A stretch of DNA of 55,978 bases from Candidatus Altiarchaeota archaeon (GTDB lineage: Archaea > Altiarchaeota > Altiarchaeia > IMC4 > SCGC-AAA252-I15), in assembly GCA_043800705.1 (NCBI GenBank), contig JAZDMS010000043.1, forward strand, positions 1-55,978, read 5' to 3'. The notes beneath the pieces are model-generated. The model ran no database searches and was not told the origin of the DNA. It saw nothing but the letters and a program-made list of their open reading frames with translations. A program made the position numbers and the translations under genes. Below, one piece after another: positions 1-55,978 of this stretch; the first letter of the stretch is position 1; the number at the start of each line of letters is the position of its first letter.

Positions 1-73
1 AGGTGCCATCTTCGGCTGCGGCCTCGATGCCACATAAAAAGGGGGAAAATCATAATCATCAAAAACCAAAAAC

Positions 74-144
74 GCGGCTGTAGTCTAGTGGTAGGACTCT
101 AGCCTTCCAAGCTGGAAACCCGGGTTCGAATCCCGGCGGCCGCA
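74..144 (+). tRNA. tRNA-Gly (anticodon TCC), no intron, CCA not encoded
   Basis: Cloverleaf: acceptor GCGGCTG/CGGCCGC plus discriminator A, anticodon arm CTAGC-CTTCCAA-GCTGG, T-arm CCGGG-TTCGAAT-CCCGG. Confidence 0.97.
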
Positions 145-230
145 TCCGGAGAAGTCGAAGCGACGAAAGTCGCACGATCCGCCGGGATGTAAAAAGCAAG
201 CGGGCTTTTTCGAGAATCCCGGCGGCCGCA
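145..230 (+). repeat. ~86-nt hairpin unit ending in a duplicate of the tRNA-Gly 3' end
   Basis: GAATCCCGGCGGCCGCA at 214-230 repeats 128-144; CCGCCGGGAT...ATCCCGGCGG inverted repeat; shares TCGAAGCG...CACGA and GGATGTAAAAA...TTTTTC with the units at 2178, 3909 and 3996. Confidence 0.85.
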
Positions 231-233
231 CAC

Positions 234-349
234 CTTTTCTTTCTTTTTGCGAAAAAGAAAGAAAAGCTGTACCAAAAGAAAGAAAAAGCGGCGCATTCGC
301 CTGATGGCGAATGCACCTGGAATAGATGCACTACCCTGCGGGGTAGGAA
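234..349. repeat. cluster of palindromes (REP/terminator-like hairpins)
   Basis: CTTTTCTTTCTTTTT-GCG-AAAAAGAAAGAAAAG, GCATTCGCC-TGAT-GGCGAATGC and CTACCC-TGCG-GGGTAG. Confidence 0.65.
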
Positions 350-378
350 GAATAAGCAGACCATAGACCCAAGGCTGC

Positions 379-407
379 AGACTTCAACACAGCCCCGTAG
401 TGTAGTG
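379..407 (+). repeat. duplicate of the tRNA-Gln leader and 5' end
   Basis: AGACTTCAACACAGCCCCGTAGTGTAGTG matches AGACTTCCAAAACAGCCCCGTAGTGTAGTG at 520-549. Confidence 0.85.
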
Positions 408-532
408 TTCCAGCGGCTCGCTCCGCTGGCGCGCGCTGCGGATGGAGGGTTCTTCGAACCCTCATGCACATGCACCACATACGTGTGGGAAGAGCAGAAA
501 ACGGAAAACTGGAAACAGTAGACTTCCAAAAC

Positions 533-605
533 AGCCCCGTAGTGTAGTGGCCTATCACAGCCGGCTTTGGACCGGCGAACTCAGGTTCGAATCCTGGCGG
601 GGCTA
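533..605 (+). tRNA. tRNA-Gln (anticodon TTG), archaeal A1:U72 type
   Basis: Acceptor AGCCCCG/CGGGGCT plus discriminator A, anticodon arm GCCGG-CTTTGGA-CCGGC, T-arm TCAGG-TTCGAAT-CCTGG. Confidence 0.97.
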
Positions 606-696
606 ATCAAACGAGGTTCGAACCCTACCCTTTTTTAAGGGTAGGAACCCCGATAATATACGCTGGTTTGGTTCCTTCAAAAGGAGGGGACCAAAA

Positions 697-1059
697 ATGG
701 AAGACGACATACACGGGACGCTCGGAACGCTCAAGTCCCTGAGAAACAACCTAGAGGAGTTAGCGCGTTCCGGAAAGATTTCTCAACAGAACTGCCGTCT
801 GATACTAGACCACGACATAGAACATGAAGTATCAGACGACATATCCCCCGGCCGCAGAAAAACCTACCTGACAGTTTTGAAGGAACTGGCCCTGCTGCTT
901 AAGAAAAAATCCTTCAAGGAAGCAACCAAAAAAGATTGGAATAGTATGCAGGCCACTAAAAAGCGAGATGCATACCTGAAATCAGCAATGGCATATCAAC
1001 CCAGATATCTGTTGATGCTGGGTATCCAGACGTTTTTCGTGACATGTCACATCAACTGA
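697..1059 (+). pseudogene. probable truncated tyrosine integrase (N-terminal SAM-like part only)
   Basis: Lies directly after the tRNA; segment ISPGRRKTYL...LKKKSFKEATKKD resembles archaeal integrase N-termini; no catalytic R/HxxR/Y domain follows. Confidence 0.5.
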
Positions 1060-1261
1060 TGAATAGGAGAGATAAAAGAGACTTAGAACCTACCCAATAG
1101 GCTGGGGTATCCCTCCTTGATATCCATAGTCATCAGGTCTGAGTCTACCGGATAGGCTCTTAGAATAATGGATGAGTTTCGAATCAAAACCATGGGCATT
1201 AATCTCAAAAATGTAACAGCCCCTGCTGGTTATAACCACAAAATTGGAGAAACTGAGGTTA

Positions 1262-1699
1262 TTACTTCAATTTTTGTATTTCTAGATTGTGACCTTTGGC
1301 GTAATCTTTGACTTTATTTTTATGCAGGTGTTCGTCCTCAGTCCAGAAAATCGCTGATTTTGTACTGATTGCCGTGGCAAGGTGTACCGCGTCTGCTGCG
1401 TGTAGGCCGAGTTCGATTTCTAGCTCTCTGGCTAGGGGAATCGTATTTGTTACAGGTATCAGTTTTATCGCACCCAATGTTGATAGTTGGTCTAGTACTT
1501 GGATGTGTTCTTCTATGCAGGATTTTCTCATACCCGCTTTAACGAAGGCCCGAACAACTTCTAAGACAAGCCATTCACTGGCGACAAATAAGGATTTCAA
1601 GTCGCTTATTCTGTTATATAATCCTTGAGCCTCTTTGGTTTTTGGCTCGTCATCTCTGAACCATTTCACAACGACACTAGCGTCAAGACATTCAGTCAT
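1262..1699 (-). CDS. vapC: PIN-domain (VapC) toxin
   Basis: N-terminal LDASVVVKW, LHAADAVHLATA, WTED acidic PIN motifs. Confidence 0.92.
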   Translation of the reverse strand: MTECLDASVVVKWFRDDEPKTKEAQGLYNRISDLKSLFVASEWLVLEVVRAFVKAGMRKSCIEEHIQVLDQLSTLGAIKLIPVTNTIPLARELEIELGLHAADAVHLATAISTKSAIFWTEDEHLHKNKVKDYAKGHNLEIQKLK

Positions 1700-1700
1700 T

Positions 1701-1934
1701 TTATTCTTCTTCGTGTGACCTGATGACGGCTTCAGTCAGACTTGGCAATCCCCGATTCTTCTCCCTCAGCTTCTGCATTTTTCCATCAAGTCGCATCATC
1801 TGGTACCTTCTTACTAAAAGTCTCAATGCCTCGTTCACAGCCTCTGTCCTGTTCCTGAAATATCCCTCCATGACAACTTTGTCCAACTCATGTACTAAAA
1901 CGGGGGTAGTCCTAACGTTCAACTGAGTACTCAT
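1701..1934 (-). CDS. ribbon-helix-helix (CopG-like) antitoxin
   Basis: QLNVR...LDKVVMEGYFRNRTEAVNEALR; immediately upstream of the PIN gene. Confidence 0.85.
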   Translation of the reverse strand: MSTQLNVRTTPVLVHELDKVVMEGYFRNRTEAVNEALRLLVRRYQMMRLDGKMQKLREKNRGLPSLTEAVIRSHEEE

Positions 1935-2099
1935 TATGTATCACCATGTATAACAAATGCAACTCAAGTATAAATACTAAAAACTGAGAGCAGGCACTGG
2001 GTTCACCTTACTTTAAGTGGGGGATTATACGCCTGTTTTTGGCATGTTTCAAGGGCCTATCAAATATCATGTATCCAGTACCGCCAAATTGTTAACCTA

Positions 2100-2177
2100 A
2101 TCATCGCCTTTTTTATATACCTTAACCCTATGGTTGGGTAGGAATCAAACCTAAGACGTATATTCCTGGCGGGGCTA
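2100..2177 (+). repeat. cassette right-end sequence ending in the tRNA-Gln 3' end (attR-like)
   Basis: 70/78 identical by manual alignment to 5625-5702; ends TCCTGGCGGGGCTA. Confidence 0.85.
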
Positions 2178-2266
2178 ATAGTATCACGTCGTAGCGGAGT
2201 CGTCTCACGAGCCGCCAGGATGTAAAAAGCGCGAAGCGCTTTTTTCATAGAATCCTGGTGGGGCTA
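2178..2266 (+). repeat. ~88-nt hairpin unit (copy 1) ending in the tRNA-Gln 3' end
   Basis: Near-identical to 3909-3995; inner hairpin AAAAAGCGC-GAA-GCGCTTTTT. Confidence 0.9.
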
Positions 2267-2412
2267 AACAAAATTTTATGCTTGATGTTCAGTCTATTCC
2301 TCTGTTTTATGGAGTATTTTCAGAAATGGGTTTGGGTCTCAAAAGGGCCCTACAGACGCAGGTTCGAATCCCTACTTCAAGCTTAAAAACAAGTAATATA
2401 ATGAAATAATAT

Positions 2413-3756
2413 ATGGATTCAACCGAATTCGTTAAAAGTTCAAGAGTTCTTAATCCTTTGGAGAGTGGAGTCAGAAGGGGGAAAAACTTCCTAAGCAGTT
2501 TGGTCGGGGCGTTAATTGGCTTATTACTATTTTTCCTTGTGGGACCGGGTCTACTCTTCATGTCGGAGTTCCAGTATACAGCAGAAAATCTGGCTAGGGC
2601 TGTGCCTGCGTCAGTTGGCTCGCCAGCCAACGGGTACGTCTATCTATATGGTATTCCCTCCCTTGTTTTGTCAAATCCCTGCATGCTATTGCCCGAAAAA
2701 CAATGTATTTATTACTCATACACTCAAGAGGAACTATTGGAGAAGACTGGTGTAAAATGCGGTTCAGACGCAAATAAACAGGGTGTAGTAAAAATATCTG
2801 ATGCGTCAGATAAATGCAGGACAAGGACAGTCCGAAAGGGTGGGCAGGATGTTGAGGAGCAGGTATGTGAAAAATGCATTAATGCCAAGTGGACTGAATG
2901 GGGGATAGTTTCTTCCAAAGAGAGCCGCCCGGATTTCAAGCTTGGAGTCAACACTGTGAAAACTCCATCCGCCTCATTCAAGGCCCTCAAAGAGCACTCC
3001 CGTGGAGAGTATACAGAACAGAATCGGAAACTCAGGGAGAAACTGAGTTACATAGATAACACAGACAATGTATTGGCGGTGGGTAATGCTGTAAATGGTT
3101 TGATGACAACCGGTAGTCCGTTCATAGTCTCCACAAAGGACTATGAATCGACAAAAGAACAGGTAAAGACTGAGCAAAGCACAAACTCATTAATAATGAA
3201 GGTCATCGGCTTCCTCGCCATCTTAATCGGCATGATGTTAATCCTAAGACCCATAACCGCGTTCGTCGAGATAGCAGGTGCAATCCCTTTCCTTGGTGAC
3301 ATCTTCATTGGTTTATCCAGCATCACCGGAATGGTCATGTTTGGATTCAGCATAGGTATAGCTATTTTGTTAACTATAGTCTACACCCTGGTTTTCAAGC
3401 TATTACGCATATTCGTTGACAACATAATTGTGGCCGTGGTAATAGGCGCCATAATCGGCCTAGTGACTTTAGTGATAGCATCCAAACTCCTGAGAATGAG
3501 GAAACCCCCACAGAACAAAATAGAAGACGAAGCACAAAAGCCCATGCCACAAACATCTTCAAGTCAACAATTAGTGAACCAGCAATCACAGGAGAGTGTC
3601 TCCCCGGTGAAAGTCGTAAATCCCAAAATGGTAGCCTACGTGTCCAAAGCACTTTCTGAGGGCAAGTCAAATGATGAAATCACAGGGAAACTAAGGGAAA
3701 TAGGCTTATCCGATGAAGAGATAACAACCGCACTACTCCAGGCACAAAACCCATAA
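2413..3756 (+). CDS. membrane protein, TMEM43/DUF1625-like topology, with low-complexity linker and small helical C-terminal domain
   Basis: N-terminal TM ending LLFMSE, large Cys-containing soluble domain, then MKVIGFLAILIGMMLILRPI...IPFLGDI multi-TM block. Confidence 0.6.
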   Translation: MDSTEFVKSSRVLNPLESGVRRGKNFLSSLVGALIGLLLFFLVGPGLLFMSEFQYTAENLARAVPASVGSPANGYVYLYGIPSLVLSNPCMLLPEKQCIYYSYTQEELLEKTGVKCGSDANKQGVVKISDASDKCRTRTVRKGGQDVEEQVCEKCINAKWTEWGIVSSKESRPDFKLGVNTVKTPSASFKALKEHSRGEYTEQNRKLREKLSYIDNTDNVLAVGNAVNGLMTTGSPFIVSTKDYESTKEQVKTEQSTNSLIMKVIGFLAILIGMMLILRPITAFVEIAGAIPFLGDIFIGLSSITGMVMFGFSIGIAILLTIVYTLVFKLLRIFVDNIIVAVVIGAIIGLVTLVIASKLLRMRKPPQNKIEDEAQKPMPQTSSSQQLVNQQSQESVSPVKVVNPKMVAYVSKALSEGKSNDEITGKLREIGLSDEEITTALLQAQNP

Positions 3757-3781
3757 GAAATAATAAAGATATCGCATTTAT

Positions 3782-3836
3782 TTAACACGTGCCAACTAAT
3801 TTCTCTCGAAAATAGATTTTTATTAGCACGTGCTAA
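3782..3836. promoter_or_regulatory. pair of palindromic protein-binding-like sites
   Basis: Perfect TTAGCACGTGCTAA at 3823-3836 and degenerate TTAACACGTGCCAA at 3782-3795. Confidence 0.45.
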
Positions 3837-3869
3837 AGAATATCTCGTACCTTACTATCGGAAGGTGCG

Positions 3870-3908
3870 AGGAATCGAACCACGTCTGTTCGAGTTCTGG
3901 CGGGGCTA
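3870..3908 (+). repeat. cassette right-end motif (degenerate attR-like)
   Basis: AGGAATCGAACC...TTCTGGCGGGGCTA; same layout as 2140-2177. Confidence 0.75.
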
Positions 3909-4082
3909 ATAGTATCACGTCGTAGCGGAGTCGTCTCACGAGCCGCCAGGATGTAAAAAGTCCGCAGGACTTTTTCAAGAATCCTGGCGGGGCTAATCAT
4001 ATCACTTCGAAGCGGAGTCGTCTCACGAGCCGTCAGGATGTAAAAAACTCGAAGAGTTTTTTCATAGAATCCTGGCGGGGCT
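3909..4082 (+). repeat. two tandem ~87-nt hairpin units, each ending in the tRNA-Gln 3' end
   Basis: Units 3909-3995 and 3996-4082; 3979-3999 is an exact 21-bp match to 589-609. Confidence 0.9.
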
Positions 4083-4139
4083 GCCTTCTTTTCTGGGTTC
4101 ATTTGCTGAGGACAGTAAACTGGGGACTGGAGACTTCAT

Positions 4140-4156
4140 GAATCTTGGTAGGGCTA
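4140..4156 (+). repeat. degenerate tRNA-Gln 3'-end copy
   Basis: GAATCTTGGTAGGGCTA vs GAATCCTGGCGGGGCTA. Confidence 0.65.
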
Positions 4157-4158
4157 CT

Positions 4159-4533
4159 TTATTTTACATATTCTACGTTTGGTAGGTTTTTGAATTCTTT
4201 GTCGCCTGTGAGGAATTTTATGTTTCGCTGCAGTGAGATTGTATAGCCTATGCAGTCGACATAAGATAAGTTTTTTTCTTTGTGTTGTTTTTTCAGCTTC
4301 ATTGCCTGTTTTATGATGTCATCTGTTATTTCAACAACATAGCCTTTGAAGACATCGTAGTATCTCTCTGCTGTTTTTTCGTCATGTCGTAGGAGTAGTC
4401 CATAATATAGTTCCATTAGGTTTAGATGGGTGGTGATGACAGCTATGCCTGATTTGAATCTATCATAATCCTTGTTTCCTTTGGCAATCTCGTACAATGC
4501 ATATGTGTCAAAGAAATACTCTTTTATTTCCAC
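4159..4533 (-). CDS. vapC: PIN-domain (VapC) toxin
   Basis: FFDTYALYE, LMELYY, LSYVDCIGY, LTGDKEF motifs. Confidence 0.92.
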   Translation of the reverse strand: MEIKEYFFDTYALYEIAKGNKDYDRFKSGIAVITTHLNLMELYYGLLLRHDEKTAERYYDVFKGYVVEITDDIIKQAMKLKKQHKEKNLSYVDCIGYTISLQRNIKFLTGDKEFKNLPNVEYVK

Positions 4534-4733
4534 CCTTTTCTAACCTCATCCTTAAAGTCCTGACCACTGATACTAGATTTTAAGGTTCCAAAGACCCCCC
4601 CTAAATTAGCTTCTCGAACAACATCGACAAGAATCTTCTCGTTCACTTCAATACCCTTCTGCTTAACATAATCCCTTGGGAATACAACCCCGTAGGAGTT
4701 ACCCCATTTGCGGACAAATACCTCAACAGTCAT
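4524..4733 (-). CDS. AbrB/MazE/SpoVT-type antitoxin
   Basis: RKWGNSYGVVFP motif; overlaps the PIN gene start. Confidence 0.9.
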   Translation of the reverse strand: MTVEVFVRKWGNSYGVVFPRDYVKQKGIEVNEKILVDVVREANLGGVFGTLKSSISGQDFKDEVRKGWK

Positions 4734-4746
4734 AAAAACACCAAAT

Positions 4747-4777
4747 AGTTATATGTATATTATACTTAAATATAACT
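4747..4777. promoter_or_regulatory. inverted-repeat operator / AT-rich promoter of the AbrB-PIN operon
   Basis: AGTTATAT...ATATAACT enclosing GTATA-T-TATAC just upstream of the antitoxin start. Confidence 0.5.
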
Positions 4778-4795
4778 TATCCATACTATTGTGTA

Positions 4796-4833
4796 AGGAA
4801 TCGGACCTTAGATGTATATTCCTGGCGGGGCTA
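4796..4833 (+). repeat. cassette right-end motif (attR-like)
   Basis: AGGAATCGGACCTTAGATGTATATTCCTGGCGGGGCTA; 34/38 identical to 2140-2177. Confidence 0.85.
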
Positions 4834-4899
4834 ATATATCCCTTTGCGGCATGACTGCTCCAGTATTCTGCGAGTCTGTAAATCCGACGGCTTAACCGT

Positions 4900-5244
4900 T
4901 CATATCGTGATGGTGATATTCGGTTTTGTGACCGGATGCATCTCTCGGCCGTTTTTCTTAACGTCTACTAATTTTAGGTGTTTCAGCAGGTTTATGTCTC
5001 GGCTGACGTTCTCCCTTTTCCTCTTCAGTTTTGTGGCCAGTTGGTTTATGGTGTAGTCTCCTTTGCGCATCTCGTGTATGAGGCGTATCCTCTCCTCGCT
5101 CAGGAACTTGGGCACGTCCTTGGGCGAAAGGTAGATTACCTGGTCTGGTTCGTTGTCCGCCAGCTTGGGATTGTCGAATATCCGGTTCACATCCTGGCGC
5201 AGGTCTTCCACTGAGCCGACCCTAACCTCTATTTTTGTTGTCAT
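4900..5244 (-). CDS. winged-HTH putative antitoxin (HVO_A0114-like)
   Basis: LSEERIRLI...TINQLATKLKRKRENVSRDINLLKHLKLV; start MTTKIEV overlaps the upstream stop. Confidence 0.75.
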   Translation of the reverse strand: MTTKIEVRVGSVEDLRQDVNRIFDNPKLADNEPDQVIYLSPKDVPKFLSEERIRLIHEMRKGDYTINQLATKLKRKRENVSRDINLLKHLKLVDVKKNGREMHPVTKPNITITI

Positions 5245-5567
5245 GGTTTCCCCTCTTTTTTGATTCTCTTGTGTTGTTGCTTGTATCGCCGCCAATTCTT
5301 TTCTATGTCGTCCAATGCCCGGTTAAACAATTCCTTGTAGGGCAACCTCGGCATATCCTCCTTCTTCGGCGGGTTCGTGCATAATGTGTCTTTGTGTGCG
5401 TGTCCATGGGCGCAGTCGTATCTTACAACCTGGTGGGGTTCCCCCTCTGTCAGGGTGTAATAGATTACTGCGAAGTCTATGACTTCTCCCCGGCATAGGG
5501 TTATCTTCGTGTATATTTCGTCTTCGCCGTAGACGAGCGGCTTAACCCTCTCAAGAACCCTAGTCAC
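5241..5567 (-). CDS. putative toxin (RYDxxHG..H motif; DUF6516/DUF7718-like)
   Basis: VVRYDCAHGHAHKD; toxin-first pairing with an HVO_A0114-like HTH gene. Confidence 0.65.
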   Translation of the reverse strand: MTRVLERVKPLVYGEDEIYTKITLCRGEVIDFAVIYYTLTEGEPHQVVRYDCAHGHAHKDTLCTNPPKKEDMPRLPYKELFNRALDDIEKNWRRYKQQHKRIKKEGKP

Positions 5568-5595
5568 ATATGTATCATAGTAAGATACATATAAA
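5568..5595 (-). promoter_or_regulatory. operator palindrome overlapping a TATA-like box
   Basis: ATATGTATC-N7-GATACATAT directly upstream of the GTG start; TTTATAT on the minus strand. Confidence 0.55.
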
Positions 5596-5624
5596 TACTC
5601 ATTTTTTGGGGGGGGATAGCCCCC

Positions 5625-5702
5625 ATCATCGTCTTTTTTATATACCGTAACCCTATGAATGGGTAGGAATCAAACCTGGTTCGTATATTCCTGGCGGGGC
5701 TA
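5625..5702 (+). repeat. terminal cassette right end (attR-like); island boundary
   Basis: Matches 2100-2177; GC content rises beyond it. Confidence 0.85.
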
Positions 5703-5752
5703 AATCTGTAGTCGAATTCTGCCATGGTGGGTTGAGGTTGATTCGGGGGCTC

Positions 5753-6300
5753 TCATAGGAGAAATGAAATCCCAATAGCAAGGAAAACCGCAGCAGCGGC
5801 CCTTGTCATGGTCTCCTGTTGATCCTTTCGGATATCATCTTGCCGAAGTATGCGGCCGTCGCCGACAGCGCCATCAAGGCTGTCAGTGCGCCTGCAAAGA
5901 CCATCAACGGGTCGTACTTGGTCGCAAGCAGGCCTGCGGCGATCTGCGTCTTGTCTCCGAGTTCCATCAGGAAGATTATGGTGAATCCTGAGACGAGGGG
6001 GTTCTTCATCTCATTCGTTCCTTCGTCCTTGTCTTTTCCTTCCCGCAGCATGAGGAGGCCGAAGAGGATGAACACGGCCGCCGATGCGGTGCGGATGAGT
6101 TGCATCGGCAGGTGCATGGACAGGAAGGAGCCTGCCAGTACCGCAAGTCCGTCCACGACTGCGAAGGCGAGCATGACGCCAAGGAGCATCCTCAGGCGTT
6201 GCTTCGTCTTGGAGGACATCAGCAGGATCGCTATCTGCGTCTTGTCGCCGAGTTCAGCAAGGCCTACCGCGGCCGCGGTTAGGGGGAAATCGTTTATCAT
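5753..6300 (-). CDS. GDT1/TMEM165 (UPF0016) Mn2+/Ca2+ transporter, frameshifted near 5812
   Basis: Two ELGDKTQ motifs; ORF stops at 5806 but the last TM helix (TMTRAAAAVFLAIGISFLL*) continues in another frame to 5753. Confidence 0.88.
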
Positions 6301-6366
6301 GGGTTTATTGTGGTGGAACGGTCGCTTTAGTAGTTGTTGGGTTCGGGCGGCGAGGAATAATTGGAA

Positions 6367-7845
6367 TCATTGGGGGGGTTTGGCTGTTCCTTGCTGGTTG
6401 CCTCCCTTTATTATTACAGTGTTCATCTTGTCTCTTTTCAGCTCTTTGTCTAGGAGTTTGAGCCTGTCTTGTACGAGTTTGTTGAGTTCGTAGAGGATTT
6501 TGTAGTCCGCCTTTAGCTCCTCCTCCTCTTTCGTGATTTCCATACCGAGCTCCTTTTCCTTGTCCTTCTCCTTTTCGACGAAGTTGAGTAGCCTCCACTC
6601 TTGGTCCTGGGCTTTTTCCAGTTTTTCCGCCAATTCTTTGGTTTCCGCCTCCATCCTCTGCGTCTGTTCCCTCAGGGTCTGGTTCTCGGAGGCTGTTTTC
6701 CTCAATTGCTCGTTCTCTTTGGCGATTTCCTGCATTTTCTGGTTCTGCGCCGTGAGCTTAGTCATCTCCTGGCGATGTTGTTCACGCTCGGCTTCAAGGC
6801 TCTTGATCTGTTGGGTTCGGTTTTTTGCCTGCTCCTCAATGTCCTGGTTTTGCCCCCTAAGTGTCTGGTTCTCTGTTTTAAGGTCGCCATTGGCCTCCCT
6901 TAGCCCTCTGTTCTCGTCTTCCAGCTCCTTTACCCTCCTGTTCTGGGTGGTAAGAAGCTGAAGGTCTATCTCATGCTTCTTGACGAGCTGTTGCAGCCTC
7001 TCGTTCTCCCTCCCAAGCTCATTGATCTGTGGGTTGTTCTTCAATGCCTCATTGCTGGCTTTGAGCGATTGTATCTCCCCCCGCATCTGTTGGTTTTCTT
7101 GTTGTAGTTTTGTGGTTTGTTGCTGTAGTGCCGGTATGTTTTGGGCCTGTGTCTTGAGTGTTTGGTTCTCTTGTTGGAGTTTTTGGGTCTGGTCTTTTAT
7201 CTGTTGGTTTTCTTGTTGTAGTTTTGTGGTTTGTTGCTGTAGTGCCGGTATGTTTTGGGCCTGTGCCTTGAGTGTTTGGTTCTCCTCCTGGGCCTTCTGC
7301 AGCTGTTGCAGTTGGGCGGCCTGATTCTGGGTTTGTGCGAGGTTTCTTTTATTGTCTGCTTCAAGGGTTTGGATCTGGGCCTTAAGCTTGGCGGTCTCCT
7401 GTGTGTCGGCGGGGGTTTGCTTTTGCGCTACGGCCTGGCCTTTCTCATGTTCCGCATTTTTCGCCAATGTGGCGTCTGTTATGATCACGATCGCGGCTGC
7501 CGTTTCGTTCCCATCCTTGGCGGCCGCTATCCTTGTCTTGTACCACTGGATCGAGCCGTCTGCAGAGGTTATGTTGAATTCCAACGCCTGTGGCTCGCCA
7601 TTCTGGAACACGGTCTTCAGTGCTTCGGTCATCTTCTGTTTGTGTTGGGGCGGGAAGTATTCGGCGGCGTTCATGCCGAAGGCATGTTTCTGGCTCATGC
7701 CGGGCAGCATCCTGTTGGTGAATATTATCACCTGGTCTTTGCCGACCGTGAGGATGTAGTCCGAGGAGTTGTCTAAGATGGCTTTAACCATCAACTCCAT
7801 CTCTTGGAGTGTTTTTTCGAGCCTTGTTTTGTCGTCTTCGGGCAT
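6367..7845 (-). CDS. PAS-domain protein with long Gln-rich coiled coil
   Basis: AILDNSSDYI...FTN...ADGSIQWY...IITDAT PAS/PAC; heptad-rich tail with a 38-aa internal duplication. Confidence 0.8.
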   Translation of the reverse strand: MPEDDKTRLEKTLQEMELMVKAILDNSSDYILTVGKDQVIIFTNRMLPGMSQKHAFGMNAAEYFPPQHKQKMTEALKTVFQNGEPQALEFNITSADGSIQWYKTRIAAAKDGNETAAAIVIITDATLAKNAEHEKGQAVAQKQTPADTQETAKLKAQIQTLEADNKRNLAQTQNQAAQLQQLQKAQEENQTLKAQAQNIPALQQQTTKLQQENQQIKDQTQKLQQENQTLKTQAQNIPALQQQTTKLQQENQQMRGEIQSLKASNEALKNNPQINELGRENERLQQLVKKHEIDLQLLTTQNRRVKELEDENRGLREANGDLKTENQTLRGQNQDIEEQAKNRTQQIKSLEAEREQHRQEMTKLTAQNQKMQEIAKENEQLRKTASENQTLREQTQRMEAETKELAEKLEKAQDQEWRLLNFVEKEKDKEKELGMEITKEEEELKADYKILYELNKLVQDRLKLLDKELKRDKMNTVIIKGGNQQGTAKPPQ

Positions 7846-55297: not shown

Positions 55298-55978
55298 CTA
55301 CTTCTTGAACGGTATCGTGAACGTCATCGACGTGCCCTTCTTCAGCGCGCTTCTGACCGATATCGTGCCTCCGTGCAGTTCGACCAGCCTCTTGCAGATT
55401 GCGAGGCCGAGACCCGTGCCCTTGTATTTCCTCTGGATCGTGGAATCCACCTGGTAGAATCGCTGGAATATGTTCCCAAGCTCGTTCTTTTTTATGCCAA
55501 TCCCGTTGTCGGAGACGCTCACCGCCAGTTGGCCGTTTTTTTCGTGGGCGGACACATGTATCGTCCCCCCGTTGGGCGTGAATTTGAGGGAGTTGTCGAT
55601 CAGGTTCACGAGGACCTGTTTGATTCTGCTGCGGTCGGCGACGATCTTGGGCGTCGCTTTGGCTGCCGTGACGAGCCTTATATTCCTCTCCTTCGCCAAC
55701 TGCCTCATGTCGTCGACGACTTCCTCTATGAGGGGCTTCGGCATGAACCTGTTCCTGGCGAGCCTAAGCTCCCCTGCGTCGATCTTCGCCATGTCCAGGA
55801 TGTTGTTCACGAGCTCGTTCAGGTGTTCGGCGTTGCTGACGATTCTCTCGAGCTTGCCCCTTTGCTCCGAATTCAGCCCTCCGATGTTTTCCGACGCCAG
55901 TATGTCCGCGTAGCCCATGATTATCGAAAGCGGAGTCCGAAGCTCATGGGAGGCGACGGCAAGGAATTCGGTCTTCAT
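55298..55978 (-). CDS. sensor histidine kinase, C-terminal HisKA + HATPase (5' part outside the window)
   Basis: SHELRTPL, NLIDNSLKFT, DNGIG, GTGLGLAI. Confidence 0.95.
   Translation of the reverse strand: MKTEFLAVASHELRTPLSIIMGYADILASENIGGLNSEQRGKLERIVSNAEHLNELVNNILDMAKIDAGELRLARNRFMPKPLIEEVVDDMRQLAKERNIRLVTAAKATPKIVADRSRIKQVLVNLIDNSLKFTPNGGTIHVSAHEKNGQLAVSVSDNGIGIKKNELGNIFQRFYQVDSTIQRKYKGTGLGLAICKRLVELHGGTISVRSALKKGTSMTFTIPFKK

Follow-up and report, generated by a model that had tools for sequence, protein, structure and literature searches.

How does a single tRNA gene come to be followed, over five kilobases, by repeated copies of its own 3' end with small recombinase-less gene modules between them? 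This question is raised by the tRNA-Gln(ttg) gene of a Candidatus Altiarchaeota archaeon, carried by a stretch of 55,978 nt (JAZDMS010000043.1, contig C30 of genome G000) that is hereafter called the window, all positions being given in its coordinates. G000 is a 2.0-Mb metagenome-assembled genome (MAG) of 43 contigs that is 87.55% complete. An original prediction, made from the DNA alone, had interpreted the array as an archaeal analogue of integrons, with cassettes serially inserted at the tRNA by an integrase acting in trans. Comparison with related genomes led us to a different picture, in which the gene array resembles integration hotspots of an already described type more than it does an integron, while being interspersed with hairpin units of about 87 nt that are each fitted to their own tRNA and appear to be new.

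The tRNA-Gln gene was called by both ARAGORN and Rfam (Rfam 15), and an Rfam scan of positions 1-6000 at E-values up to 1 returned two tRNAs (Gly and Gln) and nothing else. Its last 14 nt (TCCTGGCGGGGCTA), searched with at most 2 mismatches and compared with 100 shuffles, matched the window 9 times, with 0.51 matches expected by chance and none of the shuffles reaching 9. Eight of these matches lie between 592 and 5702, namely the tRNA itself (592-605) and seven downstream copies ending at 2177, 2266, 3908, 3995, 4083, 4833 and 5702, of which the second, third and fifth have one mismatch. An eighth downstream copy, ending at 4156, has mismatches at 3 of 14 positions and is visible solely in repeat family D1. 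The eight copies originally described are therefore real, seven with at most one mismatch and one degenerate. The outlying match (55753-55766, 2 mismatches) stands near the far end of the window, where no tRNA was predicted.

These copies split the array into four gene modules and four miniature elements (Table 1), with module boundaries that are exactly the tRNA copies and with conserved right arms. Between 600 and 5100 the GC content drops to 0.37-0.45, the flanks having 0.50-0.58 and the contigs about 0.55. The extended motif AGGAATC-RR-ACC, proposed as the common end of gene-bearing modules, was indeed recovered just ahead of the end of every gene module, which makes four occurrences in the window, the rest of the 2.0-Mb genome having a single one. 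The right ends of modules 1 and 4 have 79 nt in common at 90% identity (repeat family D5), 41 nt of which also occur in module 3 (repeat family D4), and the module ends bear an inverted repeat adjoining the tRNA copy. A small hairpin motif (CCCTA...GGGTAGGAA) precedes the tRNA copies of modules 1 and 4 and also stands just after the tRNA itself, at 622-647 (D8); module 1 thus retains both arms. With a tRNA 3' part at the far end and the intact tRNA at the near end, the array displays a direct repeat of the attL/attR type, and its modules are bounded by att-type repeats while lacking integration genes, as in cis-mobilizable elements (CIMEs).

The cargo, as annotated by Pfam, consists of toxin-antitoxin-like pairs and one membrane protein. 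A scan with PADLOC gave no defence-system assignment, the protein at 4900-5295 matching just the HTH part of CasR/Csa3-type regulators. Pfam, PF00589 and tblastn searches revealed no working recombinase in any module, in agreement with what had been proposed. The exception to this lack of integration genes is a probable relic, ORF 697-1059 (120 aa) in module 1, previously suspected to be an integrase remnant. BLASTP aligned it collinearly (aa 13-115 against 12-118, E 1e-6) with a 418-aa integrase of genome G019, which carries PF00589 at 65 bits and was the best of three weak matches in a six-frame search of the 49 genomes of the order. Furthermore, hhalign matched it to a profile of six integrases of 394-488 aa from the family with a probability of 79% (E 1.6e-5, aa 23-85 against 21-83). 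In G019, about 110 nt separate the start of this gene from the intron-bearing tRNA that precedes it, the orientation being that seen at the tRNA-Gln of G000, and no tRNA 3'-end copy was found at the far end of its element within 13.8 kb. We thus accept ORF 697-1059 as a likely, though not certain, N-terminal remnant of a tyrosine integrase, on the strength of these two alignments.

An intact counterpart was not recovered. ORF 697-1059 has no Pfam match and no further copy in G000, and the full-length homologue that the original prediction proposed to look for in the same genome was found neither by genome search nor by tblastn. The sole PF00589 match in G000 is a 272-aa XerA-like protein (C17:175-993), encoded beside the triosephosphate isomerase gene, and tblastn with three intact element integrases returned just this C17 gene. 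No intact element integrase, and no catalytic-domain integrase inside an element, is present in the G000 assembly, an absence that stays unproven since all genomes compared are MAGs and the arrays often lie at contig ends. Among the 21 genomes of the family, 10 have PF00589 matches, which fall into two classes of ~270 aa and 380-500 aa, the latter being the element class. In five MAGs (G000, G008, G013, G015 and G018), the ~270-aa XerA-like gene falls inside the opening ~1.1 kb of its contig, which suggests a repeat or a hard-to-assemble region just upstream of it.

The comparison of this locus across relatives, proposed as a check, did reveal variable content. All five congeners (G000-G004) differ at tRNA-Gln in both copies and cargo. 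The eight downstream copies of G000 compare with one in G001 (a single hairpin unit), one in G002 (another element, of 140 nt), two in G003 (two modules) and none within 5.4 kb in G004, which, together with the low GC content of the island, supports serial insertion at the tRNA. The tRNA-Gln gene itself is continuous in G000, G001 and G004 and has introns of ~60 nt (G002) and ~90 nt (G003) after the anticodon region, that of G003 containing a polypurine palindrome.

Arms and cargo were also found in different combinations. The first G003 module has the right arm of module 2 of G000 with other cargo (a 408-aa secreted protein), and its second module carries a pair of 87 and 115 aa, homologous to the toxin-antitoxin pair in the first module of the G000 tRNA-Met array. 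The arm of module 2 recurs (85% over 164 nt) on the metagenome contig L088 with yet another neighbour gene, followed by one decayed hairpin unit and then by the host flank; a search of metagenome contigs for the arm-plus-tRNA-copy pattern found one contig. In genome G016, a pair 71% identical to the RHH-PIN pair of module 1 is accompanied by a homologous arm and closes with the 3' end of a different tRNA. No tRNA-like repeats flanked the toxin-antitoxin homologues of G014, G021 and G017.

G016 also provides an element of the parental type. At its tRNA-Asp gene, a 394-aa integrase and five ORFs are followed by a 3'-end copy at +6973, delimiting an intact element of roughly 7 kb (L089, positions 583-7660 of G016:C4) with a GC content of 0.39 against 0.55. 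Directly after it stands a miniature of ~100 nt, made of the left and right ends of that element, with a second, degenerate tRNA copy, so that this locus is a clear case of an autonomous element and its miniature derivative in tandem. Intact relatives of the remnant integrase, 394-418 aa long, are hence found beside tRNAs in related genomes (G016 and G019).

The array at tRNA-Gln is part of a genome-wide pattern, which had gone unnoticed in the original prediction. Using the last 13 nt of each tRNA, with at most 1 mismatch and within 15 kb downstream, we detected at least one downstream 3'-end copy for 17 of the 35 predicted tRNAs (introns allowed, a few predictions being doubtful), for a total of 33 copies and a chance expectation of about 0.01 per tRNA. 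At tRNA-Met on contig C18, four copies bound modules of 0.9-3.5 kb. The cargo of these other arrays comprises PIN, GNAT, DUF6036, Mrr_N and vWA proteins as well as unknowns, with no integrase, and module ends at other tRNAs again consist of an inverted T-loop-like arm and the tRNA copy.

The reading that we favour, with a probability of about 0.6, is that this locus is an integration hotspot at the tRNA-Gln 3' end, where tandem accretion followed by decay would have produced att-flanked, integrase-less modules. Mobile DNA would enter at the 3' end by site-specific recombination, each insertion rebuilding the tRNA and pushing older inserts, with the displaced 3'-end copy, further downstream. 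The gene modules would be low-GC, att-flanked pieces of tyrosine-integrase elements whose integrase has since been lost. Module 1 would still hold the first ~100 integrase codons and both arm hairpins, modules 2-4 would retain just their toxin-antitoxin-like or membrane-protein cargo, the conserved right arm and the tRNA copy, and all of them would be movable only if a matching integrase acted in trans. The ~87-nt hairpin elements may insert directly after the tRNA 3' end or its copy, and so multiply the sites available for landing. The repeats, the remnant, the lack of an intact element integrase in the assembly, the variable content among relatives and the arms found with different cargo are observed; that a tyrosine integrase did the recombining, how the events followed one another and whether anything moves today are what we infer. 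A query for public sequencing runs covering 300-6300, in which circular junctions might be seen, listed none. Accretion and decay explain the gene modules without a new mechanism, because the intact integrase relatives sit in ordinary self-integrating elements such as that of G016.

Several observations weigh against accretion and decay. A phmmer search of ORF 697-1059 against 1.8 billion representatives returned the query protein alone, making the homology weak, and a word-based search of longer proteins for a full-length homologue returned none. PF00589 was found in none of the four congeners G001-G004, although arrays and units abound there. At 13-17 nt, the direct repeats of the array fall short of what is usual for classical tRNA att sites. 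Only 3 and 66 nt separate the starts of modules 3 and 4 from the preceding tRNA copy, without trace of a left arm or an integrase, and the RHH-PIN module of G016 (1.07 kb) starts right at the tRNA copy, again without integrase; the one-armed starts of modules 3 and 4 are not predicted by random decay and are predicted by cassettes with a single site. Given these one-armed modules and the way in which arms, cargo and tRNA ends are freely combined among genomes, the cassette idea retains some plausibility.

In its full form, this idea supposes a true integron-like system, in which single-site cassettes are shuffled at tRNA 3' ends by one trans-acting recombinase that would recognise the conserved T-arm-like inverted repeat, the acceptor-stem sequence needing just to match between partners. 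Small modules (0.68-1.6 kb) devoid of recombinase and beginning right at a tRNA copy would fit such a system, as would the inverted T-loop-like arm and tRNA copy that end modules at many different tRNAs, the homologous arm and cargo on different tRNAs, the same arm with different cargo, and the toxin-antitoxin pair of the G003 tRNA-Gln array that recurs in the tRNA-Met array of G000. We nevertheless consider it unlikely, given that no candidate platform integrase adjoins any G000 array, the only PF00589 gene being the XerA-like one on C17, that modules 1, 3 and 4 have their genes on the minus strand, facing the tRNA and preceded by 86-230 nt of their own upstream DNA, and that module 1 and the 7-kb element of G016 reveal ordinary self-integrating parents.

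The interpretation as an integron analogue was therefore only partly upheld. Serial insertion, the integrase remnant, the recombinase-less modules and the association of one arm with different cargo stood; the integron-like organisation did not, with neither a resident integrase/attI platform nor a common promoter and with three of the four modules' genes lying on the opposite strand. The eight copies likewise fail as cassette boundaries of one system, since three belong to the 87-nt hairpin family and one to another miniature element, the latter occupying what had been taken for a short spacer (4084-4156). As for the view that the modules are not remnants of a larger self-integrating element, it is weakened by the remnant in module 1 and the parent-type element of G016, and it gains from modules 3 and 4 with their missing left arms.

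The hairpin units raise a question of their own. Besides the three units of the tRNA-Gln array, two of which (Gln b and Gln c) form a tandem pair at 3909..4083, a fourth one that had escaped the original prediction follows the tRNA-Gly gene of the window, where its last 17 nt are the tRNA-Gly 3' end and its internal arm is complementary to it. From 5' to 3', a unit is composed of a variable part (TATC...CGAAGCG...TC.CG motifs), the tRNA-complementary arm, GGATG, a hairpin made of an A-run, a GC-stem and a T-run, AATCC and the tRNA 3' end, its 3' limit being the discriminator base of the tRNA copy. Every copy folded into an outer stem of 10-11 bp with an inner hairpin. In an alignment of 14 copies (A1), 4 of 10 outer pairs showed double compensatory changes, which arise because the tRNA-specific ends differ and still show that the internal arm tracks these ends.

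The unit core (GGATGTAAAAA) occurs 15 times in G000, mostly just after tRNAs. A covariance model of the unit (R1), applied under strict filters to the 49 genomes of the order, detected 17 copies in G000, 17 in G001, 2 in G003, 1 in G004, 2 in G006 and 1 in G007, and none in the remaining 43. Each of the 21 listed copies from relatives immediately adjoins the 3' side of a tRNA or of a further copy and is oriented like that tRNA, and units run in tandem by 2-4. Within G000, they follow at least 9 different tRNA genes (window 145-230, C5, C9, C15, C20, C22, C23 and C35), and overall at least 11 tRNA species are concerned (Gly-tcc, Gly-gcc, Gln, Ala-ggc, Val-gac, Val-tac, Arg-gcg, Arg-tcg, Arg-tct, Arg-cct and Ile). 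Orthologous tRNAs revealed empty and occupied sites: in G003 the trailer ACGAACCC... directly follows tRNA-Gly, and in G001 a unit and a 17-nt copy stand between the tRNA and that same trailer. Furthermore, two identical 86-nt units follow two different tRNA-Val genes of G003 that have the same 3' end, which points to recent copying. By their positions and sequences, the units thus behave as target-specific multi-copy insertions.

Could they rather be host elements? As a structured tRNA trailer or terminator, a unit would provide an antisense arm and a second 3'-end copy acting in pre-tRNA folding, processing or termination. Their position immediately after the discriminator base in the tRNA's orientation would suit such a role, as would their terminator-like hairpin with compensatory changes between copies, the seven tRNA species at which G000 and G001 have units in common, and the G001 tRNA-Gly unit, whose copy and arm have both changed to fit its own acceptor stem (GAACGCA, against GGCCGCA in G000). 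A host function is nonetheless very unlikely for sequences that occur in just 6 of the 49 genomes, with 34 of the 40 copies in two congeners, and that show empty sites at orthologous tRNAs, tandem runs, identical copies at two tRNA-Val genes and no matching Rfam family among the curated covariance models. We also rejected, on sequence, that they might be tRNA minihelix mimics, split-tRNA halves, T-loop introns or bulge-helix-bulge substrates, because the last 4-5 nt stay outside the stem, a tRNA body would not fit into the short 5' part and no bulge-helix-bulge is present.

A third possibility is that a transposase or a guide-using recombinase of the IS200/IS605, TnpB or IS110 type generated the tRNA copies as target-site duplications, with the internal arm as guide. 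Over 34 units, the arm pairs with its target copy at 10 of 11 positions on average, against 8.45 for control pairings with arms of other tRNAs. Few bases distinguish the various tRNA ends that are targeted, making stepwise retargeting conceivable. The margin is modest, 19% of the control pairings reaching 10. No Y1 transposase (IS200/IS605) or TnpB-type domain was found in G000, and IS110 occurs in G000 only (1 of 21 family genomes), being absent from G001 with its 17 units, and so shows no link to the units. This explanation is less likely still than a host function. The two IS110-family (DEDD) recombinase genes, the only ones in the 21 family genomes, lie in opposite orientation ~1 kb apart on C35 (71213-74400). 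More generally, no enzyme candidate co-occurs with the units, and unit-rich assemblies lack an element integrase.

There remains the idea that the units are a new class of miniature site-specific elements whose site is set by structure or base pairing instead of a fixed sequence and which, with the one-armed modules, would form a trans-mobilised tRNA-3'-end cassette system extending over the entire genome. Folded into a stem, the arm would reproduce the target duplex, made up of the last T-loop bases, the T-stem 3' strand and the start of the acceptor 3' strand, and would act in the manner of an attC or a guide, having been adapted to no fewer than 11 tRNA species. We regard this proposal as tentative and rather doubtful. 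The match between arm and target possibly arises from selection for a foldable site, from imperfect palindromes being corrected during replication or from a guide role.

A scan of viral contigs for the hairpin pattern of the unit yielded 0 stretches, and a scan of genome contigs for the same type of pattern just two contigs of one related MAG. Literature searches, supplements aside, on Altiarchaeota or Altiarchaeales tRNAs, integrases and mobile elements, on hairpin repeats downstream of tRNAs and on miniature non-autonomous tyrosine-recombinase elements yielded no account of tRNA-fitted hairpin elements; the nearest case encountered is an unrelated palindrome downstream of Methanopyrus tRNA genes (PMC5217627).

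Other small elements accompany the units in G000. The 73-nt element of the array (4084..4156) carries a GGACTGGAGACTTC motif, which on contig C35 also precedes a 3'-end copy of tRNA-Leu. Another family of small elements, GGGTTGATAAGGGC-hairpin-GCCCTTATG, has a core with 10 matches at no more than 1 mismatch, with sites on C22 (~58957), C29 (~31585) and C39 (8213, 8431), and also on C14, C19, C36 and C37; its members at tRNA-Ile, tRNA-Leu(tag) and tRNA-Thr precede a T-loop-like GTTCA and a 3'-end copy of the respective tRNA. Upstream of the array, the first 17 nt of tRNA-Gln are duplicated 142 nt before the gene, with a highly structured insert in between, another feature absent from the original prediction. 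Part of this insert (414-477) recurs at 80-89% identity on C13 of G000 and in three other genomes, and 5'-end duplicates lie 100-320 nt upstream of 7 of the 35 predicted tRNAs. A polypurine/polypyrimidine palindrome (CTTTTCTTTCTTTTT...AAAAAGAAAGAAAAG) at 230-290 follows the tRNA-Gly unit; similar ones stand directly 3' of tRNA genes in many relatives and on other contigs, and are probably the native tRNA terminator.

Table 1. Features of the tRNA-Gly and tRNA-Gln region in window coordinates (D numbers, repeats; R1, covariance model of the hairpin unit)
Feature	Position	Strand	Evidence
tRNA-Gly(tcc)	74..144	+	ARAGORN; Rfam RF00005, 71.1 bits
Type A hairpin unit on tRNA-Gly	145..230	+	D17, D3; R1 66.4 bits; folding
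Duplicated tRNA-Gln 5' end (385-407 = 527-549) and structured insert of ~125 nt	385..532	+	D14
tRNA-Gln(ttg), anchor, attL side	533..605	+	ARAGORN, Rfam
Module 1	606..2177	+	Pfam; BLASTP and hhalign for integrase remnant; repeats D4, D5, D8
Module 1, left-arm hairpin	622-647		Repeat D8
Module 1, likely integrase N-terminal remnant ORF	697-1059	+	BLASTP, hhalign
Module 1, PIN	1262-1699	minus	Pfam
Module 1, RHH, weak VapB-like	1701-1934	minus	Pfam
Module 1, right arm, then tRNA 3'-end copy	2100-2163, 2164-2177	+	D4, D5, D8
Type A unit Gln a	2178..2266	+	R1 83.4 bits; D2; folding
Module 2	2267..3908	+	Pfam; arm matches in G003 and L088
Module 2, 447-aa membrane protein	2413-3756	+	Pfam TMEM43 18.9 bits, below curated cut-off 23.3
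Module 2, right arm with inverted T-arm-like repeat, then diverged 3'-end copy	about 3814-3894, 3895-3908		
Type A unit Gln b	3909-3995	+	R1 90.2 bits; D2
Type A unit Gln c	3996-4083	+	R1 86.4 bits; D2
Further miniature element, 73 nt	4084..4156	+	Degenerate 3'-end copy 4143-4156; D1; no R1 match
Module 3	4157..4833	+	Pfam, D4
Module 3, PIN	4159-4533	minus	Pfam
Module 3, weak AbrB/MazE-like protein	4524-4733	minus	Pfam
Module 3, arm, then 3'-end copy	4796-4819, 4820-4833		D4
Module 4	4834..5702	+	Pfam, PADLOC, D5
Module 4, HVO_A0114 HTH protein	4900-5295	minus	Pfam
Module 4, DUF7718	5241-5567	minus	Pfam
Module 4, arm, then 3'-end copy	5625-5688, 5689-5702		D5

Read as accretion and decay, these data would mean that, in an archaeal phylum without cultivated members, the flexible genome is shaped by tRNA-anchored accumulation of tiny integrase-less modules, mostly with toxin-antitoxin cargo and involving about half of the predicted tRNA genes. 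They also raise the question of how one 87-nt family carries the 3'-end copy of each tRNA together with its complement. Should the internal arm set the target, the units would form a natural insertion system that can be re-targeted; otherwise, they would still be useful markers of integration sites. In addition, the units likely cause contig breaks at tRNA genes in these MAGs.

Among known systems, miniature inverted-repeat transposable elements (MITEs) are bounded by terminal inverted repeats, a transposase generating their short target-site duplication. The hairpin units resemble them in being short, non-coding, structured, multi-copy, unevenly distributed among close relatives and flanked by direct repeats on both sides. 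They differ from MITEs by a flanking repeat of 16-17 nt that is always the adjacent tRNA's 3' end, by a tRNA-specific inverted repeat that is internal (arm, hairpin and target copy), and by the lack of Y1 and TnpB domains in G000; we know of no parent element or enzyme for them. Integrons, for their part, comprise an intI/attI/Pc platform and co-oriented, mostly promoterless cassettes with one attC each. They share with the G000 locus arrays of small, recombinase-less, toxin-antitoxin-rich modules and an imperfect inverted repeat by the crossover site. However, no integrase gene, attI and promoter stand by the array, where only the 120-aa remnant adjoins the tRNA, the genes are not co-oriented, and the repeated site is a tRNA 3' end instead of an attC; lacking a platform integrase and co-oriented promoterless cassettes, the locus falls outside the integron definition.

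The closest parallels are found in elements that have lost their integration genes or accumulate at tRNAs, accretion followed by decay being a model already described in the literature. CIMEs related to streptococcal integrative and conjugative or mobilizable elements (ICE/IME) are reported to have lost integration genes, kept their att sites and been mobilised experimentally by a relative, in cis or in trans (PMC5704250). Like them, the G000 modules are att-bounded, devoid of integration genes and arranged in tandem at the 3' end of the target gene; unlike them, they are known from sequence alone and without conjugation genes, modules 3 and 4 being one-armed. Partial tRNA genes are described in another study as common products of integration in archaea (PMC9897764). 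In the tycheposon islands of Prochlorococcus, new arrivals at a tRNA push older ones inward while fragmented integrases and partial tRNAs stay behind (10.1101/2020.12.28.424599). The G000 locus shares with these islands the insertion at a tRNA, the partial tRNAs left behind, the older inserts pushed in and the integrase fragment, and differs in belonging to an archaeon, in its tiny modules (0.7-1.6 kb) with no intact integrase in the assembly, in the extent of the phenomenon, which affects about half of the predicted tRNAs, and in the 87-nt hairpin elements interspersed among the modules.

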